Numbered from the stretch's first letter, positions 41,022 to 62,800 are shown. The stretch: DNA of 64,000 nt from an uncultured Verrucomicrobiales bacterium (GCA_937928545.1 CALGJQ010000029.1:1-64000), one strand, 5' to 3'. Program-made: numbers and translations. The notes: generated by a model not told the origin, from the sequence alone.

Positions 41022-41097
41022 GCCGCCTTAGCTCAGTTGGTAGAGCTACTGATTTGTAATCAGTAGGTCGACGGTTCGAGTCCGTCAGGCGGCTCCA
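41022..41097 (+). tRNA. tRNA-Thr (anticodon TGT)
   Basis: Acceptor stem GCCGCCT/AGGCGGC, D-arm TAGCTCAGTTGGTAGAGC, anticodon loop TTTGTAA, T-arm GGTTCGAGTCC and an encoded CCA. Confidence 0.9.
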
Positions 41098-45637: not shown

Positions 45638-45665
45638 TGGCGGAGAGGGAAGGAATTGAATCTCT
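45638..45665. repeat. tRNA 3'-end-like att repeat, copy 1, marking the left boundary of integrative element 1
   Basis: tggcggagagggaaggaattgaa is repeated at 56452 with one mismatch. Its reverse complement reads TTCAA-TCCTTCCCTCTCCGCCA, which corresponds to T-loop position 54 through the CCA of a tRNA. Confidence 0.55.
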
Positions 45666-45787: not shown

Positions 45788-47134
45788 ATGGAAGTCGGAA
45801 AAGGGGTCATGCTAACTGGCTACGATGACCTCCCTACGATTGAGAACGCGAAACACGACCGGATAAAGGTTCAACAGAAGTCATGGATTCTCTCTTATCC
45901 AAGTGAGTCGGCTCTTCAAGAGTTCGTGCTTCGATTAAGGACTGTGGTTATCGGCTCGGATTCAGACACAATAGAGTATTCCCAGTTAGAAGGTGATCTT
46001 GATGAAAGCACGGGGTGGATATTCGTGAGTGCTCCTAATTCCCAACGAAGGGGGCTTACTCGGTTAAACGTTAGAAGGAGTCGAACAACCTCACACAGAC
46101 ATAGATTCGGGATGCCGCTTTTCAAGGGGAGTATCGACATTCGAGAATCACCCCAGACGGCACAAGCATCAGCTGTGATAACGAGCACGCTTTATCTTAA
46201 TCCCACTAGATTTGCGCGCTGGCAGGATGCAGAGGAAGGGAGCGCGTTTGTGTTTTGGACGCCTCGCCGACGATTTCGTGAGAGGGGGCGAAATCAGTCA
46301 TTGGATCGATCTGACAACTACATGTCACGGGAGCAGTATCAAAGATTTGACGGTGCTGATGCTTGGTTTGGACTCCTAGAGAGCTATTGGAGCGGAGTTG
46401 TCGGAGAGATTGAAAGAGAGTTCTCTAGAGCTTCGATGGCGGCTGAGGCGTCGTTCCGACGTCAACATGGGGAGAGGAACTCCACAAAGGTTAAGGAGGT
46501 GGAGGTGTATTGGGAAATGGCCTCCGATGATGCCTTGAACGAGCTATCTAGGATCAGGCCGATACTCAGAGGAATTGGACGTGATAGCCGTGAGTCTTCA
46601 TATCCGACCATAATAGGAGACATTGAGCGCGATTGCCCCTCTTTTACCATTCAGCTATGTAACGGCGTTAAACTGCGTGTCTATGCGAAGACGGAGACAA
46701 GAATTAGATTCGAGGTGGCTTATAAATTGGGAGGAAGTGGGCGGTATCAGCTCAGAGGGGGAACAGCGGGTGATGAGCCTGCAATTTTGAATCGTATTTG
46801 TCGTGAAGCTGCGATTGATGCCTCTAACCGTCTTTCTGAGATTTTCCCTCTCTTATCTGAGGTGATCCCAAGGGCGGTAACACTGATGGACTTCTTTGAT
46901 GCTCTTCATTCAAGTTCATCTTCGTTAACTGAAGCAACAGCGATCCTTCGCTTGCTGGTCGCAAATGGATCGGTCTCCATTGGACGGCGGGGAACAATTA
47001 GGCGACGAGCAATCGACAAACTAATTAGGCGTGAGGTTTTACGGTCTTCTCCAGTCCACAGTGGGAGTGCATTTTTAAGTGAGGATTATCGTTCTCTTCT
47101 TAATCATGCATTCCCTTCGTCATCACTCCTTTAG
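45788..47134 (+). CDS. Element-encoded protein, putative replication initiator (paralog 1)
   Basis: 448 aa, paralogous to 56635..57984, sharing GMPLF and LNPTRFA / VNPTRFA blocks. The position and upstream motif are the same in both elements. Confidence 0.6.
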   Translation: MEVGKGVMLTGYDDLPTIENAKHDRIKVQQKSWILSYPSESALQEFVLRLRTVVIGSDSDTIEYSQLEGDLDESTGWIFVSAPNSQRRGLTRLNVRRSRTTSHRHRFGMPLFKGSIDIRESPQTAQASAVITSTLYLNPTRFARWQDAEEGSAFVFWTPRRRFRERGRNQSLDRSDNYMSREQYQRFDGADAWFGLLESYWSGVVGEIEREFSRASMAAEASFRRQHGERNSTKVKEVEVYWEMASDDALNELSRIRPILRGIGRDSRESSYPTIIGDIERDCPSFTIQLCNGVKLRVYAKTETRIRFEVAYKLGGSGRYQLRGGTAGDEPAILNRICREAAIDASNRLSEIFPLLSEVIPRAVTLMDFFDALHSSSSSLTEATAILRLLVANGSVSIGRRGTIRRRAIDKLIRREVLRSSPVHSGSAFLSEDYRSLLNHAFPSSSLL

Positions 47135-47206: not shown

Positions 47207-47869
47207 CTAGTTCACGAAATTCTGAGATTCAGCATCTTCAACCTCTTGTTCTTCCTCAATGAAGCCAGCGAAGACTTTCATCATCTCGACTAGCTCTTCC
47301 TGTTTGGCCATATCGCGAAGCACTGAGTCTGGGACTTTAGGCGTTGATTGATTGGCATGATTTTCTGCCATTCGTGGAGTGAAACCTTGGAAGCTATCCA
47401 TCTTGATTCGGATGGTAAGAAGAAGGTTAAGAGCTTCTTTTTTCGCTCGCTCTGAAGTGGCGTCATTGTATTCCTGAAAGGCCAATTTCCAAAGCAGTTC
47501 ATATTCCATTAGAGCTTTCCCTCTCTGCGTCTCAATGTCTGGCCAAGAACAATCCCTTTTCCAACGAACCTCAACCCTTCCTCGATAGCGTTCAAGTTGT
47601 CTCCGGTCTGTGATTTCCAACAAGGGCATAAGTTCGCGTGAATGGGTAACTCCTTGAAGCATGAGTTGCTCTAGTCTCAGAACCTGCTCCTCGTCCCGTA
47701 ATGCCCTATCGCATTCGATGGGAGGGGAAGGGACTTCTACTTCATCTGAGGGGCGAGCGCGCCTCTCTGCAAGGGGAAGGCCTACGCGCCGTCTCTGGCG
47801 GGGAAGGGGAGGTGTGGTAGATTCAGCACTCACGGCGTGCATCCTAACACAGTCCTTTTCCTTCTTCAA
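47207..47869 (-). CDS. Hypothetical protein (220 aa) bracketed by two palindromes
   Basis: ORF with balanced composition and no recognisable motif. Confidence 0.5.
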   Translation of the reverse strand: MKKEKDCVRMHAVSAESTTPPLPRQRRRVGLPLAERRARPSDEVEVPSPPIECDRALRDEEQVLRLEQLMLQGVTHSRELMPLLEITDRRQLERYRGRVEVRWKRDCSWPDIETQRGKALMEYELLWKLAFQEYNDATSERAKKEALNLLLTIRIKMDSFQGFTPRMAENHANQSTPKVPDSVLRDMAKQEELVEMMKVFAGFIEEEQEVEDAESQNFVN

Positions 47870-47902
47870 GAAAGGGACAGCTTAGAGGGCAGTTTTTGTA
47901 GG

Positions 47903-47918
47903 TTGCAACCGGTTGCAA
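47903..47918. repeat. Perfect 16-bp palindrome TTGCAACCGGTTGCAA (site B)
   Basis: Located between the start of the 220-aa gene and the end of the next gene. Confidence 0.7.
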
Positions 47919-47921
47919 TTG

Positions 47922-48818
47922 TCAGTTTCGAAGTTCTTTCACGATTTGATCTCTTACTTCTGGAGAGCTAAATGGCAGTTCTTCTCCTCGATAGATATAG
48001 CGATTTCCTGATGCGTTAGGGGGGACAAAGAGCAGTAGCTTGTCAGCTTCTTCCTTCGTGATTTCCATCTCCCCCGCGACGGCAACTCTGAAAGAATTTC
48101 TCTGCCTAGCAAGATCATCGGGGAAGGCATTCAAAATCCTCTTTCGATTTTGGGCGTAAATTGCGTTTGCTCGAATCACGTCAGGAGACGGAACACTAGA
48201 AGGAATCTTAACGTCCCAAACTTCTGATTTGTCATCCCCTGACCAGCCTTTCCCGTCTGGAATATAGTTCACCATTGCCACAATTTGAGATGCCCCGTGC
48301 TCGATTGAGTGACGACTCATCTCGGCAATCACCGATACTGTTTCAGCCTTCGTTTTTTCCTGAAGATTTCGCGCTGCATAGATGAGAGTCGCGGCATAAT
48401 CTTGCGGCCTCTCAGAGCCTTCGACGACGACACGCCAAGTTAACCGCTTCCTCGATCCAAAGGAGGAATTTTCAGATTCGTAGATCTTGAAAGTGCGAAT
48501 TGCTCCAAGGCGTTCGGCAAGTTCGTCGTTTTTCAGCCTTTCGATTTCCTTGATGAGTTCCCCAAATTCTTCGTCTTCAATCGCTGAATACTTCCTTTTC
48601 AGTTCTTCTAAAGTTGAAAGGTCTTCTTCAGATACAGCCTTTTCGGCTTTCGCTATGATCTCGGAACGATTTTCCTCAAAATCTTTACGCTGTTGAGAAA
48701 TGCCAATGCTTCCGATGATTAGCAGAAGCACAAAGATTCCAACGACCACGGCTAGTGCAACTACGCACCCTTTCTTCTTCGGTTTGGTTTGCGGGAGAGG
48801 GGGTGGAGTCTGTGTCAT
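47922..48818 (-). CDS. Membrane-anchored hypothetical protein (298 aa)
   Basis: N-terminal Pro/Lys-rich segment plus a single TM helix. Confidence 0.5.
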   Translation of the reverse strand: MTQTPPPLPQTKPKKKGCVVALAVVVGIFVLLLIIGSIGISQQRKDFEENRSEIIAKAEKAVSEEDLSTLEELKRKYSAIEDEEFGELIKEIERLKNDELAERLGAIRTFKIYESENSSFGSRKRLTWRVVVEGSERPQDYAATLIYAARNLQEKTKAETVSVIAEMSRHSIEHGASQIVAMVNYIPDGKGWSGDDKSEVWDVKIPSSVPSPDVIRANAIYAQNRKRILNAFPDDLARQRNSFRVAVAGEMEITKEEADKLLLFVPPNASGNRYIYRGEELPFSSPEVRDQIVKELRN

Positions 48819-48945: not shown

Positions 48946-49152
48946 GTGGAAATCCTTAGAGAGAAGCGAGTTGAGCAGGGCCTATCCCATGAAGCTCTCT
49001 CCAAGCTCTCGGGAGTTCATCGCACAACTGTGAGCCGAGTTGAGAGAAACCAGATAAACGCCACTCTGTTTGTTCTTCAGAGTATGGCGGGCGCGTTGAA
49101 CCATCCTCTAAGTGAGATTTTGGCTCAGGCTGAAGATCGCTTGAAAAGGTGA
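48946..49152 (+). CDS. XRE-family helix-turn-helix transcriptional regulator
   Basis: QGLSHEALSKLSGVHRTTVSRVERNQ is a Cro/C1-type HTH. Confidence 0.7.
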   Translation: MEILREKRVEQGLSHEALSKLSGVHRTTVSRVERNQINATLFVLQSMAGALNHPLSEILAQAEDRLKR

Positions 49153-49299: not shown

Positions 49300-50622
49300 A
49301 TGAGCGCACAGCCTTTATCGTTGGATAGTGCTCACCGGAAAATAAACTCAATGGATGATCTGTTTGACTCGGAACCAAAGCTTCCCAATCCGAAGCGGAA
49401 GGGGAGCGTGTCAATTGGTGTTGGAGGGTGGTCTCGCTTTCATGCGGCGTTCTCGAGAGCGTTCGTAGAAGCGGCAATTGCTGATTTGTCTCAGAATTAC
49501 AAGAGCCCTCTAATATTTGATCCGTTTGTTGGTTCTGGGACGTCTATCGAAGCTGCTCGGAGCATGGGGCTTCCTATAGTTGCAAACGATTTGGACCCCG
49601 TCTCTGCGCTAATGTCTCGAGCAAAGGCTTCTAGTGATTATTCGCTTAGAACTATATTAGCCCTTCTTAAAAAGGGCCGTTCTAAGAAAATAAACGTCAA
49701 TTTTTCCGAAGCAGACCAATATTTCAGCCCTGAAAGTTGGGCCTACTGTTCAGACGTGGTAACGCGCTTGAGAAAGAAGGTAGGCAAATGTAGTAACTTG
49801 GTTTCTACTCTCGTCGAATCGACCCCGGGGAAATATGACAATGAGGTGCTAGCCCTAGCATCTATTTTGATGAGCGCATCAGTTGCTTGGAAGGGACGAG
49901 GTAGTTCCAATCCAACGTGGCATAAGAAAACCTCTGCGAATCCTACTGTGGAGTCGCTAGCCGATCTTACGACCGATGCCGCAACGAAAATAGTCTCTGA
50001 TTTATCTCAGGATTTCCCCGAAAAGTGTGTGCGAGGGACCAGAGTTTATATGAGGAATATTGCTGAGCCAATAGCATTGAAGACGAGGCCTCCAAATGTT
50101 GTTGTAACGTCTCCACCTTACCTAACTAGGATTGATTACATTAAGAATCATTTGCCGGAGGTTGTGATTCTAAATGCCTTTCAAGATTTTGAAATCCGAT
50201 CTCTAAGAGATCAAATGATTGGAACCCCGACAATTCCGAAGGGTGAGCGCTCAACGGGAAGTGGCTCAAAAAAGGCCGAGAAGATAATGAAGGAGATTGA
50301 GGGGCATGAGAGCTTCGGATCTGCCAACTACTACCTTCCTTTTTACAGAAATTACTTCGTCACTATGGAAAAGTTTTTACGAAGTTTAAAAGGGATGATT
50401 GCCGCAGATGCAAGCGGCTACATCGTTGTTCAGGAATCCCGCTACAAGGAGTTGATCGTAGATCTTCCTGCAATTGTTGTCGAACAACTGGAGTCTATAG
50501 GGGCTACGGCTTCTGTGCGTTCCGAATTTCCTGTGGGTTCATCTTATTCAAACCTAAACTCTAAATACCGGAATTCGAATAGTAGGAAATTGGTAGAGTC
50601 GGTGGTTAGCTTCAAATTTTAG
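49300..50622 (+). CDS. DNA methyltransferase (amino-MTase, alpha-class motif order)
   Basis: Motif I LIFDPFVGSGTS lies about 200 aa before motif IV VVTSPPY. Confidence 0.8.
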   Translation: MSAQPLSLDSAHRKINSMDDLFDSEPKLPNPKRKGSVSIGVGGWSRFHAAFSRAFVEAAIADLSQNYKSPLIFDPFVGSGTSIEAARSMGLPIVANDLDPVSALMSRAKASSDYSLRTILALLKKGRSKKINVNFSEADQYFSPESWAYCSDVVTRLRKKVGKCSNLVSTLVESTPGKYDNEVLALASILMSASVAWKGRGSSNPTWHKKTSANPTVESLADLTTDAATKIVSDLSQDFPEKCVRGTRVYMRNIAEPIALKTRPPNVVVTSPPYLTRIDYIKNHLPEVVILNAFQDFEIRSLRDQMIGTPTIPKGERSTGSGSKKAEKIMKEIEGHESFGSANYYLPFYRNYFVTMEKFLRSLKGMIAADASGYIVVQESRYKELIVDLPAIVVEQLESIGATASVRSEFPVGSSYSNLNSKYRNSNSRKLVESVVSFKF

Positions 50623-51614
50623 TAGTGCGTTGAATCAAAAATTGGTTCCCAGACTTCTTCCCAGTCATCGAGCCAATTGACGGCACAAAAGTCGTTGAAG
50701 CAACATTTCTCCTGTTTGAGCGGTTCAAGATTAGCCGCCTTATCTACGTCAAGTTTTGATCTGCATAGCGGAGAAGATCGTATGCACTGGCTTCTAGCGA
50801 GCATCCATTCGACGTAATTCACATGAGCGATACTGAGGTTAGAGAATTGAGCTACGCATCCAAGAGCTTGGGCTGTAGCTCTGCGAGCTTCCTCCACAAA
50901 GACTCTGCTGGGCTGATTTTTGTGGGACGTAAGCCTTTCAAGTGCCAGTTTGTGTTTAGGGAAGATCCTACCTGATCTCAGGTAAATTCTGATGATATGG
51001 TAATCTATCGCAGGCTTGATGTTCTCTGGATCAGTTATAGCGATATTACCATTCCTTACGAGTTCGTGAACAAGAACACACGATTTTTTTCTCAGTGGAT
51101 CAGCCTCAAATGCAGGGAACTCGTCGAGGTAGCTATATAAGCCTTTTGGGCCACTAAGACGTTTTTTTGACTTAGAAAGCAAGGATTGAAGGCTGCATTT
51201 AAATTTTGACTCCAAAATTTTAGCCGTTTCTTTGAGGATGCCAATTCTCTCGTTTGATCTTATTCTAGTCTCATCGATGCCCTCACCAAAAGGCTGCTCG
51301 AATTGTTCTGGCGTGATGTCTCTGACTAGGTTCGTTATTTGTGTTGCTGATTTACACCCCGCAAATAATTTGCTCATAGCGGATTCGAGTTCGTTCCAGT
51401 TATACTGGTGACATATCGAAATGAAGAAGAATTTCTCGGTTAAATCCCTGCCAGACCACGGAGAACCAAGCGATGGATTAGAGTCCTTTAGAAGAGTGAG
51501 CTTTTGGGCCGAAAGCTGGCAAGCAATCTCACTAACGCCGAACCAAGGGTCTGATTTAGGGTCTGGAAGAAGCCTCTCAGTTCTTGATGTGCCCGAGGCA
51601 TTTGGATTTTTCAT
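50619..51614 (-). CDS. DUF2419 / Qng1-like nucleotide N-glycosylase family protein
   Basis: ERIGILKETAKILESKFKCS and flanking blocks resemble the queuosine-5'-phosphate N-glycosylase (Qng1/C9orf64, DUF2419) family core ER-RIL-ETGKIL-EKFGGS. This is recognition by eye. Confidence 0.55.
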   Translation of the reverse strand: MKNPNASGTSRTERLLPDPKSDPWFGVSEIACQLSAQKLTLLKDSNPSLGSPWSGRDLTEKFFFISICHQYNWNELESAMSKLFAGCKSATQITNLVRDITPEQFEQPFGEGIDETRIRSNERIGILKETAKILESKFKCSLQSLLSKSKKRLSGPKGLYSYLDEFPAFEADPLRKKSCVLVHELVRNGNIAITDPENIKPAIDYHIIRIYLRSGRIFPKHKLALERLTSHKNQPSRVFVEEARRATAQALGCVAQFSNLSIAHVNYVEWMLARSQCIRSSPLCRSKLDVDKAANLEPLKQEKCCFNDFCAVNWLDDWEEVWEPIFDSTHY

Positions 51615-52155
51615 GGAGATACTTTTCCTGCTCAGGTGTCCGATTCATATCGAGGTGAGCTTGCTTGACGTTGAAGCCTTCCCTTTGTAGGGCTTCTATT
51701 TTGAGCGGGTTGTTGGATTCAATTCGAATGTCTTTTGGCGTATTCATACTTGCCAAAAGTTTTGCAGCAAAATCAAAATCTCTCTCATCTTTTGAGAAAC
51801 CTAATTCCTTAAAAGCGTCCGAAGTGTTGAGACCTTGCGCCTGTTGGAGGCCGATAGCCTCACATTTTTTAAGTAGTCCGATTCCTCGACCTTCCTCGAA
51901 AGAATAGATTAAAAGACCCGGGCTAGTTTTAAGTTCGTCGAGAAAAGATTCTAGCTGATGGCCACAATCGCAATCATCAGCACCGATAGCCTCGCTGAAC
52001 AAACAAGAGGAATGTATTCTAACCAAAACAGGGCCATCTCCAAAATTATCGTCCTTATAAACGATGGCATGACTTTCATCTGACAGGGGGACTCTTATCC
52101 AGTAGTCAAAGCCTTTGCGGGTGATTCGAATGGGCTCTGTAAGCTCTATACTCAT
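51577..52155 (-). CDS. GTP cyclohydrolase II (RibA-family) homolog
   Basis: VRIHSSCLFSEAIGADDCDCGHQLE (zinc Cys triad), EGRGIGLLKK, ERDFDF and SNNPLK align along the whole length with E. coli RibA motifs. Confidence 0.85.
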   Translation of the reverse strand: MSIELTEPIRITRKGFDYWIRVPLSDESHAIVYKDDNFGDGPVLVRIHSSCLFSEAIGADDCDCGHQLESFLDELKTSPGLLIYSFEEGRGIGLLKKCEAIGLQQAQGLNTSDAFKELGFSKDERDFDFAAKLLASMNTPKDIRIESNNPLKIEALQREGFNVKQAHLDMNRTPEQEKYLHEKSKCLGHIKN

Positions 52156-54512
52156 TAAAATTCTTTAGCTGGGAGATCACTTGGAGACTCTATGAGTCGA
52201 GTGATATAATTCTCAGGCCAGTCAATCTCATTGTCTGTATAGAATCGAGGGATTTTTGGTTTTTCGTTCATCGTCTCTATATATTTAACTGATGATACTG
52301 AAAATTCGTAATGCGCCCGTTCAAATGGTCGCTCGGTTCCCCATCGCGAGACAAGTAAGCTGATTTTATCGAGTGTCTCACGAGCTTCCGTTACATCGTT
52401 AGATCGAAGGCTAGCATCAGCCAATCCAAGACAGCTCCAGAAGAGGGAGTCTCTGTTAGTCAATTTTTCAGCGCACTCAATTGCCTTACCGTAAGATTGT
52501 CGAGCCTCGGTGTTTTTACCGAGATGACGAAAAACTTCTCCTTCGGCTAAATGGGAGTTACCAAGCTCTAGTCTAAGGTGATTTATCTTAGCTAATTTTT
52601 TTGCTTGGGTGGCAGAGCGTAGAGCCTCGTTTCTGCGCTCTGGAATAAAGCAGTATGTTCGAGCTTCTGTTCGATAGATGTCGCAATTTTCCTTGGGGCC
52701 AAATGCTTCAGGATCATTGTCACGAAGGGTGTGAATTTTTTCTATCCACAGAGATGCTTGAGAATAATGTCCTTTGGCTCTTTCAATAGTATTGAGGCAG
52801 CGGATAGCCCCCAGCCCCTCCTTCGTGGTTCTATGATTATCTTTAAGGATAGCCTCAGCAAATTTGGTGGCTCTTTCAAACTGACCTAACCGAACGAGGA
52901 TTTTTGTCTTTAGCAGGAGAATCTTATTTGAAATTGGGAGCTGCTCTACGATCTGGATCGCCTCCGAGTAATTGCCTCTAATGTAAAATGCATAAGCACG
53001 AATGGATTCGATTGAGGTGTGATAATTCTCTGTGGATCCAATAGCCTTTGTTAACCCAGTCTCGATTGATTTGAGCGACTCTAAACCGGCGTCAATTCGC
53101 CCGCCTCGCACTAATATATCTGCTGAAGCGATGAGCCTTTCCCAGTCCAACTGCTGATCTTGAATTGTCCACGCCGATAACGAATTTTCGAAGAATGAGA
53201 GTAAGCTTTCGTCGAATTTCCCCCTGATTTCAGGTTGATCGAGTATTTTTAAGATTTCAGCGGCTATTTCCACCTTTGCATGAAGAGTAGTAGCGCCAAA
53301 AATACTCTTTCCAATTAGGTCATGGTAAAGCCTTACTCCTCCAGAATTAGGATCAATTTTAACGATTAACTTTTCTTGAGCTTCAGCAAGTGCGCTGCTC
53401 AGCTCTACAGAGCTGTCGATTCTGGCCAATTTTAAGATGAATTCGTGCGGAAACCATCCGCCTGAAGGTAGCATGGCCAAGCCCCTAATTACTCTGATGG
53501 CAGCATCAGAGTCTAGGTTTTCAAAGTGGCTGGGATAGTCAGATGGCATGGATCCTAAGCACTGATGCGCTGTTGGGATTTGGTCAATACTTGGGGCGTT
53601 GTTAAGAAGCTGTTCAATTAGGAAAGGCCTTCCTTGCGTTTCATCCTGAAGGTCTTGGAGTTTCTCGTAAAGAGGAACCTTTCCAAAGATTTTGTGAAGC
53701 CATTCTTCGATTGCAGGAGCTTCCAAGGAGGGGACTAGGTGTTCCTCATAAGAGCCTTTAGAGTTTTGCTTTAGCTCTTTTACAAAGTAGCTAAACACCT
53801 CTCGGTCTTGAGTCTCGTCGTTCATCGACACAAATATCGACCAGCCATTAGGAAGCTGTGAAAGAACACCCAGAATTACCTGCTTCATGTCTTCCGAGCT
53901 TTTTTCAGCTGAGTCAATGCAGATCACCCCACTAAGACCGAGTCGTTCACAAAACTTAAGAAGTTCCTCAAACCGCACCAGCTTATCTTCGTGAGCCATG
54001 TTGACAATACTTGAAGCTTGAGTTGCTTGGTTAGTGTCCTTGTGGGTGGAATAGAGAACATTGAACAGAGCTTCTGCTGTTTTGGGAGTCAGAAGCCCTA
54101 GGTCCTCAATGAAACCATGGATGAGAGTTTCTGTATGGTCACTCGAATTGTCGTTAAGTGACTTTCTCATGGCCTCTAATTTGTCTTTCCGGATTTGGAG
54201 GTGTGGGCCAATAGCAGCACACACTGCGGCCATTAGTCTAATAGAGTGAACGGCTTTAGAGGAGACCTCAAATAGGCAGCTTATTTTCTCTTCGGGAGAA
54301 GATGCCATGACTTCCTCAAGGATAGCGGTTTTACCAACTCCTGAGCCCCCTGAGAGAATATAGATTTTTTTCTCTAGTGGATTTTCACAAAGATTCTCAA
54401 TCATTGAGCGTCTTCCGAAGAGAACGCGAGCTGGGATCGATTTTTCAGGGCTTGAAAGGATTTCGCCTTCGTTACTCTTACTTTTGAAAAATCTAGAAAC
54501 CCAATTGAGCAT
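52155..54512 (-). CDS. STAND-type P-loop NTPase with C-terminal TPR repeats
   Basis: Walker A LSGGSGVGKTAILEE about 50 aa from the N-terminus, a Walker-B-like GVICIDSAE, and about 300 aa of TPR-like repeats (AIQIVEQL..., KAIECAEKL...). There is no DNA-binding or fused effector domain. Confidence 0.75.
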   Translation of the reverse strand: MLNWVSRFFKSKSNEGEILSSPEKSIPARVLFGRRSMIENLCENPLEKKIYILSGGSGVGKTAILEEVMASSPEEKISCLFEVSSKAVHSIRLMAAVCAAIGPHLQIRKDKLEAMRKSLNDNSSDHTETLIHGFIEDLGLLTPKTAEALFNVLYSTHKDTNQATQASSIVNMAHEDKLVRFEELLKFCERLGLSGVICIDSAEKSSEDMKQVILGVLSQLPNGWSIFVSMNDETQDREVFSYFVKELKQNSKGSYEEHLVPSLEAPAIEEWLHKIFGKVPLYEKLQDLQDETQGRPFLIEQLLNNAPSIDQIPTAHQCLGSMPSDYPSHFENLDSDAAIRVIRGLAMLPSGGWFPHEFILKLARIDSSVELSSALAEAQEKLIVKIDPNSGGVRLYHDLIGKSIFGATTLHAKVEIAAEILKILDQPEIRGKFDESLLSFFENSLSAWTIQDQQLDWERLIASADILVRGGRIDAGLESLKSIETGLTKAIGSTENYHTSIESIRAYAFYIRGNYSEAIQIVEQLPISNKILLLKTKILVRLGQFERATKFAEAILKDNHRTTKEGLGAIRCLNTIERAKGHYSQASLWIEKIHTLRDNDPEAFGPKENCDIYRTEARTYCFIPERRNEALRSATQAKKLAKINHLRLELGNSHLAEGEVFRHLGKNTEARQSYGKAIECAEKLTNRDSLFWSCLGLADASLRSNDVTEARETLDKISLLVSRWGTERPFERAHYEFSVSSVKYIETMNEKPKIPRFYTDNEIDWPENYITRLIESPSDLPAKEF

Positions 54513-54591: not shown

Positions 54592-56388
54592 TTAAATCGA
54601 CTTCGGAATGAGCGTTTTCTGTTCAGCGAGAAGAGTTATGGCTTGAATAGAGTCGCCGACGTGATCGATTTCTTCTTTAAGTCTAGCGAGACTATAGCCA
54701 TTTCCATAGCTACTGTGTGAACTCTTCTTGCTGCTAGATTCCACCCAGCCACCTAAGGCTTCCATTATGGGAACTGGAACTCCTGCGTCTCGGCCAGCTC
54801 TGGCAAATGAGTGTCGGAATGAATGAAGAGTCTTCTCCCTATTTTCTAGAGTTTGCCCCTCAAGGACCTGCCTTCGGAAGCGAGAGAACCATTTGCTCAC
54901 AGCGTCGGCCATAGAGCCCCGTTTTGTTTTTGTAAGAGTAGAGAAGACATAAACGTGATCAGCTTTTCTTTGGCCATCTATGAAAGCTAGAAATCCTGTT
55001 TTTAGAAACTGATCACTTAGAGGCAACCGTCGATTGCTGTGACTAGTCTTGAGTTGCTTCACCTTCAGGCCTTTATCGTTCACCTCACGGATATCAAGGA
55101 ACCAGACTCCTTCCTCTTGTTTGACGTCCTCAACGAGGAGTTGCGCGGCTTCGTTGGCCCTCATGCCGTGGAAAAAGCAAAGAAGAGGAATCCAAAATCG
55201 AGGGTAATTTTTTGGGTGATGGCGGCAGTCTAGGAATGACTGGAGAGAAAAGAGCTTTACCAGTTCATCTGACGGGAAAACTACGGACTCCTTGTTCGTG
55301 ACTTCAGGAAGGCGACTTGAGACAGCCCTTTTTGTAAATGGATTTGCGGTAATCCAGTCCAGTTCGTGAGCGTGGCGGAAGATTGATGAAAAACCTTGCA
55401 GGTGGTCTTGTTGGGTCTTCGGAGAAATGAAGCAAGGAAGGTTCCTTGCATCTTCTCTTATCGATGCTTCTTTTAGAGTAAGCTTGGGATAACGCTTTGT
55501 CCCGTTGTTTGGAATTTTACCAAGAAAGTCTGCCAGCTTCTGAGCCTCTTCAACTCCTACAGCTGAAACTGCGGTTGTGTCTCCAAGGAAGTCCTTGAGA
55601 ATACGGATTTGCATCTGGTATTTAGAGAGGGTGCCTGTGGTTACACCCATCACCTTCTTGTCTTGCTGGTATTTGGCGCATAGCTCGCCGATGGTGCGCG
55701 TTTTAGCAGGGCGCGCGTTTACTGATGAATGGGAATAGAGATCTCTAAAGAGCGGATTTTCGGGCTCTTTTGGTGCCGAATTCATCGCGATAAGAGTCCG
55801 GCGTCCGATCTCAATTTCAGCTTTGCGGATTTGGTGTGCAAAAATGATGATTTCCTCATCGGTTGCTTGAAAGCCGTCCTCTGCAATGATCGCAGCAGCT
55901 TTCTTCTCCCATACTGAAAGAGGGATAGAATCAAAGGAGCTGATGTCTGAGTGGTCGAGCCTAGCATCCCCTAAAGCCTCATTTTTCCAGAGATCATCAT
56001 CGGATGCTGTCCAATCGTCTCTGAAGCTTTCGGCTCCCTTTTCTCTACTTACGAACCATCGAAATACTAAATCGCGTTTTTGTTCCTCCGTGAGAACCTT
56101 GAAAGGGAGCTTCTCTGCGTTGTTACTCTCCTTAGTGCCTTTCCACTGCTGTTCTAGCTTCTCGACCTCTAATTGGAAGTGAAGGGCTTCTCTCGTTGCT
56201 ACTTGTTTAGCTTTTTTCCAGTCTTTGGTCTCAAGGCTCTTTCTGAAATGGCTTTTCCCTCCGGTTAGCTCAAGGGGAAGGTCACGCGGATAGCGGGCGT
56301 TGAAGTAGTAAACGCCATTTCGGCGGATCGTGTTTGGAATCTTAGGCACGTTGTCTGAGGCTTCTGGTGTGTCACCTTGGTATGCCAT
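54592..56388 (-). CDS. Tyrosine recombinase / phage-type integrase (element 1)
   Basis: C-terminal catalytic motifs FHGMRANEAAQL, HSFRHSFA and a GW...Y tail, with a long N-terminal extension. Confidence 0.85.
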   Translation of the reverse strand: MAYQGDTPEASDNVPKIPNTIRRNGVYYFNARYPRDLPLELTGGKSHFRKSLETKDWKKAKQVATREALHFQLEVEKLEQQWKGTKESNNAEKLPFKVLTEEQKRDLVFRWFVSREKGAESFRDDWTASDDDLWKNEALGDARLDHSDISSFDSIPLSVWEKKAAAIIAEDGFQATDEEIIIFAHQIRKAEIEIGRRTLIAMNSAPKEPENPLFRDLYSHSSVNARPAKTRTIGELCAKYQQDKKVMGVTTGTLSKYQMQIRILKDFLGDTTAVSAVGVEEAQKLADFLGKIPNNGTKRYPKLTLKEASIREDARNLPCFISPKTQQDHLQGFSSIFRHAHELDWITANPFTKRAVSSRLPEVTNKESVVFPSDELVKLFSLQSFLDCRHHPKNYPRFWIPLLCFFHGMRANEAAQLLVEDVKQEEGVWFLDIREVNDKGLKVKQLKTSHSNRRLPLSDQFLKTGFLAFIDGQRKADHVYVFSTLTKTKRGSMADAVSKWFSRFRRQVLEGQTLENREKTLHSFRHSFARAGRDAGVPVPIMEALGGWVESSSKKSSHSSYGNGYSLARLKEEIDHVGDSIQAITLLAEQKTLIPKSI

Positions 56389-56451: not shown

Positions 56452-56478
56452 TGGCGGAGAGGGAAGGACTTGAACTCT
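56452..56478. repeat. tRNA 3'-end-like att repeat, copy 2, at the junction between element 1 and element 2
   Basis: tggcggagagggaaggacttgaa. Its reverse complement, TTCAAGTCCTTCCCTCTCCGCCA, equals tRNA positions 54-76 (probably a Ser-type tRNA with a GGAGAGG acceptor stem and G73). Confidence 0.55.
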
Positions 56479-56596
56479 GGGTGCTATGAGCACTTATTTT
56501 CAAGGACTTACAAATCCTGTAAAACATGGGTGTGTATCACCCGCGCTTCGGGGGTGATTATTCAAGGTTGGAGACCTTGGGAAAAGCTTAAACGGG

Positions 56597-56610
56597 TAAA
56601 AATCTGACAA
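56597..56610 (+). promoter_or_regulatory. Conserved motif TAAAAATCTGACAA, 25 nt upstream of rep-like gene 2
   Basis: Identical to the 14-mer at 45748..45761. Confidence 0.5.
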
Positions 56611-56634
56611 ACGCCTTCACCCTGTGGCGGGTTC

Positions 56635-57984
56635 TTGCATCCTTGGGGCATGCTACAATCATACGATGATGCACCAACGCCAGAATCTGCCCGAATCGAC
56701 AGGGTGAAGCTTTCTGTAAAAGGCTGGCGGGTATCCTATCGGGACGATCAAGCCTTCGATGATTTCGTGTTTGCTCTAACAAGTCCCAGCGGGGTGCAAG
56801 CTGGGAGGCTCATTGATTCAGACAACAGCTTGGTTGAGGGGTTAGAAGACAGGGGGTGGATATTTAACAACCGAAAGAATCCCAGTCTGTCCCTCACAAC
56901 TCTGGACGTAAAGAGGCCCCGCTCTTCGGGGGTTCGAGGGCGGATGGTAGGAATGCCTCTATTTGGCGGCATAGTCCGCTTCTCACGGCAGAGAGGGGAA
57001 CTTAGCGGCAATCGTAGCGTTTCATCGATCACGCTTGAATTGAGCGTGAATCCGACGCGGTTTGCGGACCGCCACCCAACAGGGGGACCATTCTTCCCGT
57101 ATGTCCCAAGAGGTGTTTCCCGTAGCCGATATTCCTCGCTTGATGGAAATGACAATCTAATGAGGCCGCAAGCCTTGGTTCGATACGACGACGATGCCCT
57201 TTGGCACGATCTTCTAGATTTGTATCCAAGCATCGTGATTGAAGCGATCCAAGCCGAGATGGAGAGAGCCGCTGAGGTTTCAGAATGCCAATTTGTCGCC
57301 ACCGAAACTCGGTTTTCTATTCGAGATGTGGAGATATACTGGGAGAAGTCTTCAAATGACGCCATTCAAGAACTGCAAAGCTATATCCCTGCGCTTTCTC
57401 AAGTCGGGAGGGCTAGCAGGGTCCGTGAGTATCCAAGCAGTGAGACAAGCAGAGAAGCCAATTGTCCCTCGGTGTCTGTTAGTCTCGCTGAAGGTTTGAC
57501 TTTTCGCACGTATGCCAAGGCATTCGACAGACTGCGATTTGAATTTTCCTTCAATCTGAAAATGTTCCACCGTGCAGCGAGTAGCGCGGACTCATTGGCT
57601 GAGGTCAACAGCAGGTTTCATCAACTAGCGGAAGATGCATCTTCACGACTGGTTCACTTGATGGGAGCAATGAGGCAAACGGGGGAAAGATCAGAAGCCG
57701 CAACACTAAGGGGGTTTCTTCAAAAACTCCATTCCTCAGTGCATACCGCCGATGATGCGCATCAAATCCTCGCAATCCTAATTGAGTTTCGATGCCTCGC
57801 GAGACCTTCGAGAAAATTCGATGTGGTTGCGAGAAGGCTAAGAGATGAAGGGGTGTTGTGCCAAAGCCTTCCCCAAGGAGTAACGACGCCAAATCCTTAC
57901 ACTCTCACCCCCGAATATTTGGAACTTTTTAGGTCTGTTTTTCCACTTCCAACTGACTCCCCTAGCATCTCCCCGACTGTGTAA
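56635..57984 (+). CDS. Element-encoded protein, putative replication initiator (paralog 2)
   Basis: 449 aa, paralogous to 45788..47134. Confidence 0.6.
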   Translation: MHPWGMLQSYDDAPTPESARIDRVKLSVKGWRVSYRDDQAFDDFVFALTSPSGVQAGRLIDSDNSLVEGLEDRGWIFNNRKNPSLSLTTLDVKRPRSSGVRGRMVGMPLFGGIVRFSRQRGELSGNRSVSSITLELSVNPTRFADRHPTGGPFFPYVPRGVSRSRYSSLDGNDNLMRPQALVRYDDDALWHDLLDLYPSIVIEAIQAEMERAAEVSECQFVATETRFSIRDVEIYWEKSSNDAIQELQSYIPALSQVGRASRVREYPSSETSREANCPSVSVSLAEGLTFRTYAKAFDRLRFEFSFNLKMFHRAASSADSLAEVNSRFHQLAEDASSRLVHLMGAMRQTGERSEAATLRGFLQKLHSSVHTADDAHQILAILIEFRCLARPSRKFDVVARRLRDEGVLCQSLPQGVTTPNPYTLTPEYLELFRSVFPLPTDSPSISPTV

Positions 57985-58137
57985 GCAGCATTTAGAATTT
58001 CCTGTCTTAGCGTTACTCAGGCGGTAGGACTATGCCCCTAAAACCTTTTCAGCAAAGAGGAAAAAATTCAAGGTTCGTTTCACCGCAACTTGGTTTCGGG
58101 CCATGTTTTACGTAGGAAAAAAATCTGGTATCTTCGC

Positions 58138-58371
58138 TCAGTGTTGATCACTTGTGTTTGGTTGACGCTGCCGAGCGGATTCTCGCTGTAACATCCAATT
58201 TCTGAGGCCTTGTTCTCGCCTTCTCCTACTCTTCTCGATTTGTCTCCCAAACTCTTTCCAATCTTCGTCAGATTTGATCCCTCCCAAGAGGGCGGCGTCT
58301 CTTTCTCGACGATCTAAGTTTTTCGGCTCTTGCTCAGTCCGGCCACTTGAACACTCTTCTCCCATACTCAT
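58138..58371 (-). CDS. Small basic hypothetical protein (77 aa)
   Basis: ORF only; Arg/Glu-rich. Confidence 0.25.
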   Translation of the reverse strand: MSMGEECSSGRTEQEPKNLDRRERDAALLGGIKSDEDWKEFGRQIEKSRRRREQGLRNWMLQRESARQRQPNTSDQH

Positions 58372-58426
58372 GTTCGGACTATAACATTTTTAGGACGAGC
58401 TAGCCAGCGCACGGTGCCGAAAGAGG

Positions 58427-59269
58427 CTAAGGCAAGGCGACGGTTGGAGGTGCGATCAATACCTCTTTGCCCTTTTTGCTCGAATGCGCGCTATAATGGA
58501 GGGAAAAGGATCGGCAGGTCATGTCCCGATATAGTGCTCTAATTTCGGGTGCGTCATCATAAGTAAGAACCCATGGGAAGTCTGCCTTGTCTCGGAGATA
58601 GTCAGACACCTTTGCATGATCCTCTGGCTTGTAGTGATTGAGGTAGAGCTGTGATCCTTTCACGAAGTAAGGTGGATCGAGATAGGCGAAAAAATCCTCG
58701 TTGGCGTATTCCTTCGACGATGCAGCAAGGAAATCGAGAGCATCCAAATTCGAAATCTTGATGGATTCTTTGTGGTCAGCAATCTCCTCAATTCTTGCGA
58801 TCAAAGAATCCTTGTTAAACCTCGCGTCAATTTTCCAATTCCCATTTTGGGCGATTCCACCAATCGGACCACCAGTCGCGATAATGCCAGATCGATTGCA
58901 CCTGTTTAGATAAAAACTAGCAAATCCAGTCTTAAACTGAGAATGCTTATTAGAGCTTTTGTAAATCGCCTTTTGATTTCGCCATTCATCTACTGTTATT
59001 GGAGTTCGGTGAATTGCGTTTTTGAGGCGTGTTGTTTGATTGAGAACTGCGTTCCAAAACGAGTAAATCCGATAGTCGGCATCGTTTATGAGAGCGGTTG
59101 AGACATGCCCTAGGAAAAGGAGTTGTAGGGCTGAAGACGCCCCTCCTGCATATGGTTCTGCGTAAATGCCTCCTTGGAGTCCGTTTGCATAAACGATTTG
59201 TTGGAGCAAGGGACAAAGCTTTCCTTTCCCACCTGGGTAACGGAGAGGGCTGACTTGGCTAGCGATCAT
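58427..59269 (-). CDS. Dam-family DNA adenine methyltransferase
   Basis: LRYPGGKGK at the N-terminus (Dam motif) and DPPY catalytic motif. Confidence 0.85.
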   Translation of the reverse strand: MIASQVSPLRYPGGKGKLCPLLQQIVYANGLQGGIYAEPYAGGASSALQLLFLGHVSTALINDADYRIYSFWNAVLNQTTRLKNAIHRTPITVDEWRNQKAIYKSSNKHSQFKTGFASFYLNRCNRSGIIATGGPIGGIAQNGNWKIDARFNKDSLIARIEEIADHKESIKISNLDALDFLAASSKEYANEDFFAYLDPPYFVKGSQLYLNHYKPEDHAKVSDYLRDKADFPWVLTYDDAPEIRALYRDMTCRSFSLHYSAHSSKKGKEVLIAPPTVALP

Positions 59270-60753
59270 TTTTTGACAGACAGAAGCTTTTCAAAAACTG
59301 GCTCAAGTTTGGCACAGAGTGATTCAATATCGGAATCGGTTACTGGGAAAAATTCAGCATGAACCCACGCGTTTAATGTTGTAAGAGAAAAAATTCCTTC
59401 TTTCTGTCCCAGCAACTGATTTACGACAGAAATAACTCTCTTTTCGAGCTGGATTGATGACCCTGCGTTGGAGTCGATTATGAACTTGAGCATACGTGAT
59501 AGCTTCGGAATCTCATTGGGATTTGCCTGATTGACAAATTTCATAAGTTTTGGCCAGTCACCAGCTTCCTTTACTGACCCAATTAGAGACAATTCCAACA
59601 GGAGCCTTACAAGGAGAGCCGTTGAGTTTTTATATTCACTATATCGAATGGAGTGAATTTCCTTGATCACCGAAGGGATTCTTTGATCAGGAAAGCAGCA
59701 TGTGAATTTTTTCTTAAAAAGCCCATTTCCGTATTTCCTACCCGCCTTCTTTTTCGGTGGGAGTTGCTTTTGGGGAGGGGTGGTAACTTTGGGAGGGGGT
59801 GGACTATTTGAAAGTTTCGCATAAAGAGCTTTGAACTCTTTCGGAGTCTGTCTTTTCTTCTTAGGTAATTGATCTTCCAACTTTCCGAGATAGCCCTTTA
59901 GCTTTCCGAGATCACCGACAGTTCTTGTGTCGAGCTTCTTCTTTCCCGTTTGCTCATCAATCGATAGGGAATCTTCAAGAATTATGCTGAGGAAATGTTG
60001 AAACCGCTCCATTCCTCCTGTCACCTCAATTCCTTTGTCGGGGCTGATTGAGAACCCTACCGTCTTTTGGGCTGTCGGAACGGTGATTATCTTATCGATG
60101 ACGGTTGCATGGGGGAATTTTTTTGGATCTGCGAGATCCTCTTTTATCTCCTTGGCCAAATCAAGGTGAGGAGAGATTTCGTAAATGCTTAGGGTTGCCA
60201 ACGACTCGGAAATCGCCCCGTCCGTTGCCCGACAGATTCGTTTGATCTCCTCAAGGCTCTCTCCAGCGTTGACCAGCTTTTGGATGAAAACCGCCTGTTG
60301 AATTTTGGACCACCGCTTGGAAAACGTTTCCGGCGTGTGCTTCATGTAAACATATATGTTTGCCTGAGTCCTGTCTGGTGCGCAAACAGTCCAAACCTTT
60401 CGGGGGAGGTTTTCGCCTAAGTCAGTTTGGAGTGCTTTGAAGGTTTTCTGAACGCTGGGGTCAGGCGCGCGAAGAGGATTGGTAAGCAGCTTATATGCAG
60501 CAAGCCGCCGATTCCCCTCGATCACGATCTTCTTGCCATTCTCAACCGCGATCACCAAGTCTTCGACTGGCAGGTAGCCAACTTGAGAAATCTGTCTTGC
60601 GAGTTGATCAATGTCCTCAGTTTCGAGGAGCTTTTCAATCGCTTCAGCCTCAGACTTTGTTTCGCCGAAAAGCCTCGGGTTTTTAAGGTCGAGGTGAAGT
60701 GATGAAATGACGTATTCACGTTTCTTCCATTCAGTATAGTTGGTCAGTGGCAT
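59266..60753 (-). CDS. ParB-like nuclease-domain protein with a C-terminal domain of unknown function
   Basis: KIVIEGNRRLAAYKLL is a ParB/Srx-type GxRR motif near the N-terminus. The gene overlaps the dam-like gene by 4 nt. Confidence 0.6.
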   Translation of the reverse strand: MPLTNYTEWKKREYVISSLHLDLKNPRLFGETKSEAEAIEKLLETEDIDQLARQISQVGYLPVEDLVIAVENGKKIVIEGNRRLAAYKLLTNPLRAPDPSVQKTFKALQTDLGENLPRKVWTVCAPDRTQANIYVYMKHTPETFSKRWSKIQQAVFIQKLVNAGESLEEIKRICRATDGAISESLATLSIYEISPHLDLAKEIKEDLADPKKFPHATVIDKIITVPTAQKTVGFSISPDKGIEVTGGMERFQHFLSIILEDSLSIDEQTGKKKLDTRTVGDLGKLKGYLGKLEDQLPKKKRQTPKEFKALYAKLSNSPPPPKVTTPPQKQLPPKKKAGRKYGNGLFKKKFTCCFPDQRIPSVIKEIHSIRYSEYKNSTALLVRLLLELSLIGSVKEAGDWPKLMKFVNQANPNEIPKLSRMLKFIIDSNAGSSIQLEKRVISVVNQLLGQKEGIFSLTTLNAWVHAEFFPVTDSDIESLCAKLEPVFEKLLSVKK

Positions 60754-60896
60754 CTGTGTCGGTTGTAGCTTGGCAAAGTGTGCTCAAAAAATGGTTCGTA
60801 ATAAAGCCTTCTTCTGGGCGGAGTAAATTCGACTCAAAAGGAAACTTTAGGTGTATTCAGAAAAACACTTGATTTTTTGAATACACTTGGTAGATA

Positions 60897-61532
60897 TTGG
60901 CCATGCCGAAAACGATCCCAGTTGCTATTCTTGTCCGAGTCTCGACAACGAAACAAGAGACAGATCGTCAGGTTTCCGAATTGGAAGCCTACGCGTTGAA
61001 GCAGGGATACTCAGTTTTTGAAGTCTGCCGGGAGTCAATTTCGGGGGCCGCTGCTATGGATTGTCGCGCTGGACTGAGTCGGGTTGAAGAGTTGGCGCGT
61101 TCGGGCCAGATCAAAAAGGTGCTTGTTCATGAAGTCTCTCGTCTTGCGAGGAAAAATAGTGTATGCCATAGCTTCGTTGAAGCACTGGAGGAAGCTGGCG
61201 TCTCGCTTTATTGGCACCAACAATCGATTGAGACCCTTCTCCCAAGTGGAAAAAGAAATCCGGCTGCTGCAATGATGTTTGCCTTACTTGCTGAGATGGC
61301 CCGATCTGAAAGAGACACCTTGACTGAGAGAATCAAGTCTGGCCTTGCTGAGGCTAGACGGAAAGGACGGACTCTAGGCCGTCCGAAAGGGTCGGGCTTG
61401 GATACCAAAGATTTCCTCTTCAAGCATCGTGACGTAAGGCGAAAGCTGAATGAAGGGCATTCGATAAGAAATACTGCCAAGATCACGGGTAAGGGCGTTT
61501 CGACGGTTCAGCGAGTGAAAGCGTTACTCTAA
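60897..61532 (+). CDS. Serine recombinase (resolvase/invertase family)
   Basis: AILVRVSTTKQETDRQ (catalytic Ser region), a resolvase core and a C-terminal HTH. Confidence 0.85.
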   Translation: MAMPKTIPVAILVRVSTTKQETDRQVSELEAYALKQGYSVFEVCRESISGAAAMDCRAGLSRVEELARSGQIKKVLVHEVSRLARKNSVCHSFVEALEEAGVSLYWHQQSIETLLPSGKRNPAAAMMFALLAEMARSERDTLTERIKSGLAEARRKGRTLGRPKGSGLDTKDFLFKHRDVRRKLNEGHSIRNTAKITGKGVSTVQRVKALL

Positions 61533-61546
61533 CGCCTCCATCTTCT

Positions 61547-61786
61547 CTATCGTAGTGACTCTTCGGCCTCGGTGATTATTGAGCTAAGGGTTAAATCGAG
61601 GGCGTTAGCGATTTTCTGAAATATGAACAAAGTCCCGTTTGTCTCTTCAGCTTCGATTCGGCCAATTGTGGAACGACTCACCCCCGCGAGGTCTGCCAGT
61701 TTTTGATGGGAAAGGCCCTGCTTTTTGCGGTGAGCTATGAGAACGGCAGTCACTTGAGATGATAGCTGTTTCGGGTCGATTGGCAC
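61547..61786 (-). CDS. XRE-family HTH regulator (paralog of 48946..49152)
   Basis: QGLSHQKLADLAGVSRSTIGRIE is a Cro/C1-type HTH. Confidence 0.7.
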   Translation of the reverse strand: MPIDPKQLSSQVTAVLIAHRKKQGLSHQKLADLAGVSRSTIGRIEAEETNGTLFIFQKIANALDLTLSSIITEAEESLR

Positions 61787-61842
61787 ATTCCCAGATTATT
61801 GCTGGTCTCCAATTAAAAATACGCCCACATAAGGGCGGTTAA

Positions 61843-62796: not shown

Positions 62797-62800
62797 GAAT

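Follow-up and report, generated by a model that had tools for sequence, protein, structure and literature searches.

Gene order and conservation of the module

The 64,000 nucleotides (nt) of DNA from an uncultured Verrucomicrobiales bacterium analyzed here (GCA_937928545.1 CALGJQ010000029.1:1-64000), which will be referred to as the window, carry a cassette of only ~5.2 kb encoding four small, soluble-looking proteins (Table 1). Three of the genes lie on the minus strand and encode, in this order, a STAND-TPR NTPase (STAND protein), a GTP cyclohydrolase II-like enzyme (RibA*) and a protein with the fold of the N-glycosidase Qng1 (glycosidase). The fourth gene, which encodes an amino-methyltransferase of the N6_N4 type (methylase), converges on them. 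An initial annotation of the window had described the three minus-strand genes as overlapping, and this was borne out by the list of open reading frames (ORFs) and the sequence itself. The STAND/RibA* junction reads ...GAATTTTAATGAGT... on the minus strand (also given as TTTTAATGAGT) and contains TAATG, in which one base is common to the TAA stop and the ATG start; the TGA stop of RibA* is located 38 nt inside the glycosidase ORF. The methylase and glycosidase genes overlap with their 3' ends by 4 nt. All these overlaps are unchanged when the shorter NCBI starts of the STAND and methylase genes are used. Similarly short overlaps or abutting genes recur in homologous loci, for example 4 nt for STAND/RibA* in L011, L041 and L075 and ~4-40 nt for RibA*/glycosidase. 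Promoter and terminator scans over 48.7-56.7 kb yielded results no better than those obtained with shuffled sequences.

The glycosidase is a rare protein; 5.8 billion clusters contained 40 homologues at E ≤ 0.001. Its alignment was used to gather 30 genome loci, 80 metagenome loci and one viral locus, all ORFs of which were classified with profiles built for this analysis; counts refer to the 107 non-redundant loci. In 49 of them the RibA* gene immediately precedes the glycosidase gene, and most of these also contain the STAND gene; the methylase gene is arranged tail-to-tail with the glycosidase gene in 54, and the full set of STAND, RibA*, glycosidase and convergent methylase was present in 32. 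This full set spans Proteobacteria, Acidobacteriota and Verrucomicrobiota. The hosts of the loci include Alpha-, Beta-, Gamma- and Deltaproteobacteria, Acidobacteriota and Chthoniobacterales, among them Marivita, Yoonia, Bradyrhizobium, Sphingomonas, Marinobacter, Pseudomonas, Kangiella, Piscinibacter and Rubrivivax. When the four proteins were compared in 28 complete loci, their pairwise distances correlated with r = 0.87-0.89 (Mantel p ≤ 0.001); the four genes are thus inherited as one unit. The three minus-strand genes thus proved to be a conserved, coupled unit across homologues. The methylase, previously taken for an orphan enzyme, turned out to be a component of the module, since no other partner of the glycosidase is as constant and its distances co-vary with those of the triad. 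Decaying copies were also observed in genomes, with RibA* split or frameshifted in Marinobacter orientalis (L012:9446-10002) and the glycosidase split in L020 (9947-10968) and L028 (9658-10884).

Table 1. Features of the window, the four module genes first (aa, amino acids)
Feature	Position	Strand	Size	Remarks
STAND-TPR NTPase	52155-54512	-	785 aa	NCBI start Met37 = 54404, giving 749 aa
RibA* (GTP cyclohydrolase II-like)	51577-52155	-	192 aa	
Qng1-fold N-glycosidase-like protein	50619-51614	-	331 aa	
N6_N4-type amino-methyltransferase	49300-50622	+	440 aa	NCBI start Met18 = 49351, giving 423 aa
Tyrosine integrase	54592-56388	-	598 aa	Phage_integrase 4e-11; DUF6538 N-terminus 5e-10
Direct repeat, left copy	45638-45660		23 bp	putative att site; TGGCGGAGAGGGAAGGAATTGAA
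Direct repeat, right copy	56452-56474		23 bp	just past the integrase gene; also start of second, tandem element
Small Xre-type helix-turn-helix (HTH) protein	48946-49152	+	68 aa	HTH_3 6e-13; PHROG transcriptional regulators; directly upstream of methyltransferase
Paralogue opening first element	45788-47134		448 aa	
Cargo genes (220-aa protein, DUF4875 protein)	47207-48818			DUF4875 protein: PF16175 4e-18, phrog_28655
Second island	56475-64000			
Paralogue opening second element	56635-57984		449 aa	
PD-Lambda-5 B	58427-59269			
PD-Lambda-5 A	59266-60753			
Small serine recombinase	60897-61532			
Second tyrosine integrase	62817-63959			
tRNA-Arg(TCT)	33069-33145			upstream of islands
tRNA-Thr(TGT)	41022-41097			upstream of islands

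Sequence and structural features of the four proteins

RibA* matched PF00925 with E = 3e-32 and aligned with E. coli RibA (2bz0) over residues 32-195. Its residues Cys51, Cys62 and Cys64 align with the E. coli zinc ligands Cys54, Cys65 and Cys67, and Arg46, Glu88-Gly89-Arg90, Arg125, Asn148-Asn149-Pro150 and Lys152 (window numbering) are kept; in E. coli numbering, the retained positions include R49, Q70, E92-G93-R94, K101, T114, R128, N151 and K154. The window protein and 16 module homologues have kept the residues for triphosphate binding and guanylyl transfer (E. coli R49, R94, R128 and K154); this retention speaks for continued use of free GTP by RibA*. Tyr105 of E. coli RibA, however, which is hydrogen-bonded to the zinc-bound water, is replaced by Ile101 in the window and, in each of the 16 module copies, by Ile, Val or Met. 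The catalytic signature of RibA, described as full in the initial annotation, is thus incomplete, being confirmed for the zinc-binding Cys triad and for the GTP and phosphate residues but not for the position of Tyr105. In addition, the position of E. coli Asn118 is occupied by Phe115 in the window protein, and the changes found clade-wide are E53S/A, D58E, N118F/Y and usually E127P (E. coli numbering).

The extent of this clade was determined by an exhaustive search of 1.84 billion representatives, a word-indexed search having given only 14 proteins. The nearest relatives, approximately the top 45, are nearly all stand-alone proteins of ~190-210 aa with the pattern [S/A]53-E58-G95-[I/V/M/L]105-[F/Y]118, and the canonical RibA and RibBA proteins with Tyr105 and Asn118 come after them. 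Tyr105 was absent in 66 of the 158 domains of the top 150 representatives, and these domains cluster among the nearest hits. Judged by its sequence, RibA* is a distinct, neofunctionalised clade. The loss of Tyr105 together with the separate clade makes it unlikely that RibA* synthesizes the normal riboflavin precursor, and its product is probably a compound other than 2,5-diamino-6-ribosylamino-4(3H)-pyrimidinone 5'-phosphate. A natural Tyr-to-Met paralogue of GTP cyclohydrolase II in Streptomyces coelicolor reportedly stops at the formylated product, similar to GTP cyclohydrolase III.

An ordinary riboflavin ribA gene, located by chance beside unrelated genes of a mobile element, would account for the strong PF00925 match and for the score against the NF001591 subfamily model 'RibA', the cut-off of which was barely reached (148.4 bits vs 148). 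The TIGR00505 equivalog model, in contrast, was missed by 70 bits (135.2 bits, cut-off 205.85), Tyr105 is lost clade-wide and, as noted in the initial annotation, no riboflavin genes are nearby, none having been found among the neighbours scanned with Pfam (45.8-49.2 and 54.6-58.0 kb) and PADLOC (58.4-60.8 kb). Moreover, dozens of loci from different phyla share this gene order and their sequences co-vary, and this conservation effectively excludes the explanation. Automated annotation will mislabel RibA* as riboflavin ribA; it represents a clean case of a re-purposed housekeeping enzyme, marked by the loss of a single catalytic tyrosine. One relative, P0216, carries behind its Tyr-less RibA* domain a C-terminal segment which by eye resembles glyoxalase/bleomycin-resistance (VOC) proteins. 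This fusion hints that the RibA* product or a derivative may be a small molecule that needs binding or detoxification. The multi-RibA-domain proteins P0173, P0174 and P0186 were also considered as fusions and were rejected as unrelated tandem-domain proteins.

The glycosidase matched the Pfam family Q_salvage (PF10343) with 17.7 bits (E = 0.003; gathering cut-off 25), and only one distant relative (L102) passes the cut-off. The family is unannotated and not covered by Pfam. Its likeness to Qng1, proposed earlier, was demonstrated by structure comparison, which revealed the three-dimensional fold of Qng1 including the family-specific additions. The unusually rigid signature of the family consists of CHxxNW, seven invariant Arg, D172, K176/K177, N266-x2-E269-W270, E323-P324 and four Cys; the latter are arranged as C277-x6-C284...C304-x5-C310, a spacing that only partly resembles the Fe-S loop of EndoIII and MutY but may point to a metal or Fe-S site. 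In the EndoIII-type [4Fe-4S] loop, the spacing is C-x6-C-x2-C-x5-C. A Tyr as the very last residue (Y331) is near-invariant across all glycosidase subfamilies. In Qng1, the carboxylate of the terminal Tyr is part of the enclosed site for queuosine-5'-monophosphate, family-specific insertions block the DNA cleft, and the enzyme is metal-independent (PMC9881137). The terminal Tyr and the Qng1 fold favour a mononucleotide as the substrate of the module glycosidase, and such a preference fits GTP cyclohydrolase II-type enzymes, which release the 5'-monophosphate of a guanine-derived base. Judged by spacing, an Asn may take the place of the guanine-edge Asp298 of Qng1; searches of the PDB with the glycosidase profile or with bridging relatives (L031, L102) gave no usable alignment with Qng1.

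The methylase contains motif I (D74-P-F-x-G-S-G-T81) and motif IV (S271-P-P-Y274), separated by a helical insert of ~190 aa; DPFxGSGT and SPPY are invariant in 65 homologues. The PF01555 match is slightly above threshold (27.6 vs cut-off 26.7), hits of the profile include N4C/N6A DNA methylases, and a match to a phage 'DNA methyltransferase' PHROG extends over the full length of the protein. The methyl acceptor is thus probably DNA. Structurally, the Rossmann core is nearest to the tRNA guanine-N2 methylases Trm11, Trm14 and TrmN, and Foldseek returned only generic class-I methylase matches with a TM score of ~0.3. Distant relatives of the methylase adjoin GmrSD_N/DUF262, HEPN and PLD-helicase genes. 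In L117 (6001-9181) and L118 (6001-8233), such relatives are located immediately upstream of GmrSD_N/DUF262, in L117 accompanied by HEPN, and these two loci look like other uncharacterised methylase-linked defence pairs.

The composition of the module raises the question of a system related to restriction-modification (R-M) that acts on nucleic acid. The methylase would mark the host, the glycosidase, together with the STAND ATPase, would be a base-excising 'restriction glycosylase' or a reader of modified or unmodified bases in DNA or RNA, and RibA*, or the TauD-like enzymes that take its place in other loci, would alter the target guanine or supply a cofactor or adduct. The tail-to-tail arrangement of methylase and glycosidase genes with overlapping stops, found in nearly all methylase-bearing loci, is the classic R-M layout, and the SPPY and FxGxG motifs, the N4C/N6A and phage PHROG matches and the company of the distant methylase relatives point in the same direction. 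The glycosidase, for its part, has the fold of helix-hairpin-helix (HhH) glycosylases, the partly EndoIII-like spacing of its four Cys and many invariant Arg and Lys residues, and an active site that stays the same despite different partner enzymes fits a common polymer substrate. Nevertheless, its structure resembles Qng1 much more than any DNA glycosylase, a closed pocket for a mononucleotide is suggested by the invariant terminal Tyr, and neither a Pfam match to HhH-GPD nor an open DNA-binding cleft was found in the glycosidase. The triphosphate-binding and guanylyl-transfer residues of RibA* indicate free GTP as substrate, and no nuclease domain was detected in the module or in the conserved flanking families that could represent a cognate restriction endonuclease. 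Furthermore, the methylase is dispensable in some lineages: complete transposase-flanked triads of STAND, RibA* and glycosidase exist without it, as do some TauD variants, and its absence would be lethal for a true restriction system unless otherwise gated. On balance, we regard an R-M-like function as rather unlikely.

The STAND protein matched the Pfam families AAA_16 and AAA_22, weakly nSTAND6, and several TPR families. Walker A (G55-T62), Walker B (D200) and the GxP motif (G294-R295-P296) precede C-terminal TPR repeats; the same motifs are conserved in a set of 32 homologues, which range from 743 to 897 aa (743-818 aa in 31 of them). No additional conserved region was seen in the alignment of these homologues. 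As the initial annotation had stated, the protein lacks an effector or DNA-binding domain, none being detected by Pfam or in the alignment; the P-loop begins at residue 55 and no domain precedes it. Avs4 models match only ~55-60 residues around the P-loop, with 17-18 bits compared to a cut-off of 1500. By analogy, we propose that the STAND protein is a sensor or switch.

Variant cassettes and genomic context

The same glycosidase forms the centre of a wider family of cassettes, of which the module is one. The complete loci are split evenly between those with a co-directional STAND gene, as in the window, and those in which it is divergent; in the latter, a gene for a DNMK-like P-loop kinase converges on it (16 distinct loci). 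In seven co-directional loci a guanylate-kinase-like gene is located divergently from the methylase gene; the window has neither of these kinase genes. A protein with the dCTP-deaminase fold takes the place of STAND in four to five loci, and in L010 the adjacent kinase gave a match of 1e-13 to the kinase portion of the PADLOC 'dCTPase' model. In ~23 loci RibA* is replaced by a TauD-family Fe/2-oxoglutarate oxygenase with intact HxD...H...R. The large partner in these TauD-type loci is an alpha/beta-hydrolase and helical-repeat protein, the N-terminus of which resembles the Lamassu LmuA hydrolase effectors. A profile search with the TauD-like protein returned only distant AsnO/CAS-like oxygenases and was silent on the substrate. 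The glycosidase represents the fixed core of several cassettes, and solving its substrate would explain all of them.

Two further arrangements were observed. Glycosidases of ~740-770 aa that are fused to an N-terminal DUF362 domain (L026:4776-7091, L029:8477-10786, L095-L100, L105) adjoin the alpha/beta-hydrolase-repeat partner; in them, the same active site is combined with a third type of partner enzyme. A gut-bacterial branch of the glycosidase (L030-L034, L109-L114) comes from Lachnospiraceae, Oscillospiraceae and Prevotella, thus from Firmicutes and Bacteroidota, and includes an IMG/VR contig (L034). In this branch the glycosidase is followed by a conserved protein of ~340-367 aa, without a Pfam match in the copy scanned, and the third position is held by a metallophosphoesterase-domain protein of ~685 aa or a protein of ~400 aa.

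Among the 135 proteins encoded within 6 kb of 17 genome loci, six are integrases, and matches were also obtained to models of PtuA/PtuB, type IV restriction endonuclease, DRT, PDC-S11, MzaA, AriA, SoFic and PbeA. Integrases, transposases and defence genes thus often flank the module in its homologues, confirming the association with mobile elements and defence islands. No model of PADLOC-DB v2 matched RibA*, the glycosidase, the TauD-like or the dCTP-deaminase-fold proteins, and the large partner proteins showed marginal matches restricted to the P-loop or the N-terminal hydrolase domain (Avs4, mad8, PtuA, LmuA). Likewise, no paper was found that links GTP cyclohydrolase II, Q_salvage or DUF2419 with phage defence or STAND proteins, so that the combination of parts is covered neither by the PADLOC models nor by the literature found, in agreement with the initial annotation.

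This context bears on a further explanation, namely a small-molecule pathway unrelated to immunity, in which a modified pyrimidine or purine-derived base (a toxin, signal, redox compound or cofactor precursor) would be built or salvaged from GTP by RibA*, the glycosidase and the methylase, the latter N-methylating an exocyclic amine, and the STAND protein would serve as regulator. GTP ring opening, base release and amine methylation form a sensible series, the methylase core is nearest to guanine-N2 methyltransferases, and the kinase accessories fit nucleotide metabolism. The segment read by eye in the P0216 fusion is also in line with this pathway, since domains of this type are often involved in handling toxic small molecules. 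In plants, the redox-toxic pyrimidines vicine and divicine are derived from the product of GTP cyclohydrolase II. However, the methylase family is annotated as, and shaped like, a DNA methylase with phage homologues, and some complete cassettes lack it. A DNA-binding output is absent from the STAND protein, and the flanking families contain no conserved transporter, tailoring or resistance genes. A role in conflict is also indicated by the integrase or transposon islands that carry the module in the company of defence genes and by its patchy distribution over phyla. We therefore consider a pathway of this kind quite improbable, and a role of the module in conflict or defence of some kind probable.

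In the window, the module is part of a 10.8-kb island flanked by 23-bp direct repeats that are identical in 22 of 23 positions, with the integrase gene at the right end. The repeat consensus, TGGCGGAGAGGGAAGGA(A/C)TTGAA, occurs twice in the window, nowhere else in it and in none of 100 shuffles, and it resembles the reverse complement of a tRNA 3' end. The G+C content is 0.43-0.45 over 50-55 kb compared to ~0.50-0.53 over most of the leftward part of the window. Together with a tandem second island, the repeats, the integrase and the G+C drop bear out the view that the module is cargo of a mobile element. Integrases of the same DUF6538 type adjoin the module in L019, L050, L055 and L057. Neither of the two tRNA genes upstream of the islands matches the repeat, and the tRNA gene that donated the att site is therefore probably located beyond the right end of the window.

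Further genes of the two islands were recorded. The Xre-type HTH protein could be a local controller; its gene was rejected as that of an R-M controller protein because it is absent from the conserved flanking families of other loci. The 220-aa cargo protein is without family match, the DUF4875 protein has an apparent N-terminal membrane anchor, and neither gene is conserved beside the module elsewhere. Two paralogues of 448 and 449 aa open the tandem elements and share the upstream motif GTAAAAATCTGACAA. They matched no Pfam, NCBIfam or PHROG family, the 448-aa protein also no PADLOC model, and may serve the replication, excision or regulation of their respective elements. The second island contains a complete PD-Lambda-5 pair, a small serine recombinase, a second tyrosine integrase and a 317-aa protein without a match in the PHROGs scan.

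Proposed function and relation to known systems

From the observed anatomy, conservation, folds, active-site residues and context we infer the chemical steps, the trigger and the phenotype described in the following. The reading that we tentatively favour is a mobile conflict or defence cassette for a STAND-controlled, two-step and irreversible breakdown of GTP, with DNA methylation as an accessory function. A trigger would be sensed via the TPR region of the STAND protein, the assembly of which would switch on the two co-translated enzymes. RibA* would bind GTP, release pyrophosphate and open the imidazole ring at C8 with its zinc site. As the counterpart of Tyr105 is missing, the reaction would probably halt at the formylated product, formamidopyrimidine ribotide 5'-phosphate, or else RibA* might produce only GMP. 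The glycosidase, with an enclosed Qng1-type mononucleotide site closed by the carboxylate of its own C-terminal Tyr, is then predicted to cleave the N-glycosidic bond, yielding the free ring-opened base and ribose-5-phosphate. The net result would be an irreversible loss of GTP, possibly accompanied by a reactive or signalling pyrimidine, and replication of the invader would be halted. About half of the relatives have an accessory gene for a guanylate kinase-like or deoxynucleoside monophosphate kinase-like protein, which may supply this sink with additional guanine nucleotide. Most likely, the methyltransferase acts on DNA and thereby provides a self-mark or a safety device, its gene being arranged tail-to-tail as in R-M systems.

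Several observations weigh against breakdown of GTP as the function of the module. The sensing of a phage protein by the TPR-STAND protein is assumed by analogy, and the Avs models match its P-loop only. The outcome predicted for the Tyr105 loss is taken from the reported behaviour of the S. coelicolor paralogue. The DNA methylase is the most constant partner and has no obvious need in a pure depletion system. The active-site signature of the glycosidase is identical whether it is found with RibA*, the TauD-like dioxygenase or fused DUF362, which is awkward if the substrate is specifically the RibA* product. The four invariant Cys, arranged partly as in the EndoIII/MutY Fe-S loop, may instead point to a nucleic-acid substrate, Qng1 being metal-independent. 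Finally, the module was not found on viral contigs, which yielded one distant glycosidase relative only, and the core proteins have no PHROG match except for the 'DNA methyltransferase' PHROG of the methylase. The rarity on viral contigs indicates that the module is not typically phage-borne, and the link to phages is contextual.

In another version, the active agent would be the free ring-opened guanine base itself, a formamido- or triamino-pyrimidine made from GTP once the STAND sensor is triggered. The amino-methyltransferase would mark or protect the host, and the TauD-like and DUF362 proteins would represent parallel routes to related bases on which the same glycosidase acts; the base would act as a redox-toxic molecule, as a second messenger or as a nucleobase attached to protein or nucleic acid. 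We consider this version unlikely. If the cassette serves defence, GTP as well as two enzyme families otherwise known only from vitamin B2 synthesis and queuine salvage would join the nucleotide chemistry that bacteria direct against invaders, and the STAND sensor would act through separate metabolic enzymes as effectors instead of a fused domain.

Compared with GTP cyclohydrolase II RibA (EC 3.5.4.25), RibA* shares the fold, the size, the zinc-binding Cys triad, EGR, the proposed guanylyl-acceptor Arg and NNP-x-K, but it lacks Tyr105, is never found beside rib genes in the locus set and is always coupled to the glycosidase. The module glycosidase is 16% identical to Qng1/DUF2419, from which it differs by its four invariant Cys and by its partners, which are RibA* or TauD-like enzymes, STAND and the methylase rather than queuosine salvage genes. 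With the Avs and NLR-like STAND ATPases, the STAND protein has in common the P-loop core, Walker A and B, GxP, TPR-type repeats and the location in mobile or defence islands, whereas it has no N-terminal effector and the enzymes are separate, translationally coupled proteins. Type II R-M systems resemble the module in the convergent, 3'-overlapping methylase gene with SPPY and FxGxG motifs; in the module, however, no endonuclease is recognisable, and the partners of the methylase are metabolic-type enzymes and a STAND ATPase.

Enzymes of queuosine metabolism have been recruited before, as QueC-like proteins (Cap9/QatC) are re-used in type IV CBASS and QatABCD (PMC13639016). The module is similar to these systems and to Dpd in that enzymes of guanine or 7-deazaguanine chemistry appear in a multi-gene defence cassette, but it contains GTP cyclohydrolase II instead of GTP cyclohydrolase I and a Qng1-like glycosidase instead of QueC or TGT, and no CD-NTase, QatA, QatB, QatD or Dpd genes were detected in the Pfam and PADLOC scans. 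Cleavage of an N-glycosidic bond is likewise known from immune effectors that act on ATP (bioRxiv 10.1101/2023.01.24.525353). A parallel in the proposed outcome is provided by the nucleotide depleters, such as dCTP deaminase, dGTPase, ATP nucleosidase and RADAR, which share with the module the proposed destruction of a nucleotide pool upon infection, and some relatives of the module carry a 'dCTPase'-like kinase domain or a dCTP-deaminase-fold protein. The module would differ from them in GTP as the proposed target, in its two-step chemistry and in enzyme families that are undescribed in defence. Thus, the logic of the cassette, with STAND sensors, nucleotide-targeting immunity and methylase-linked defence, is known, whereas the enzyme families are new to this field.

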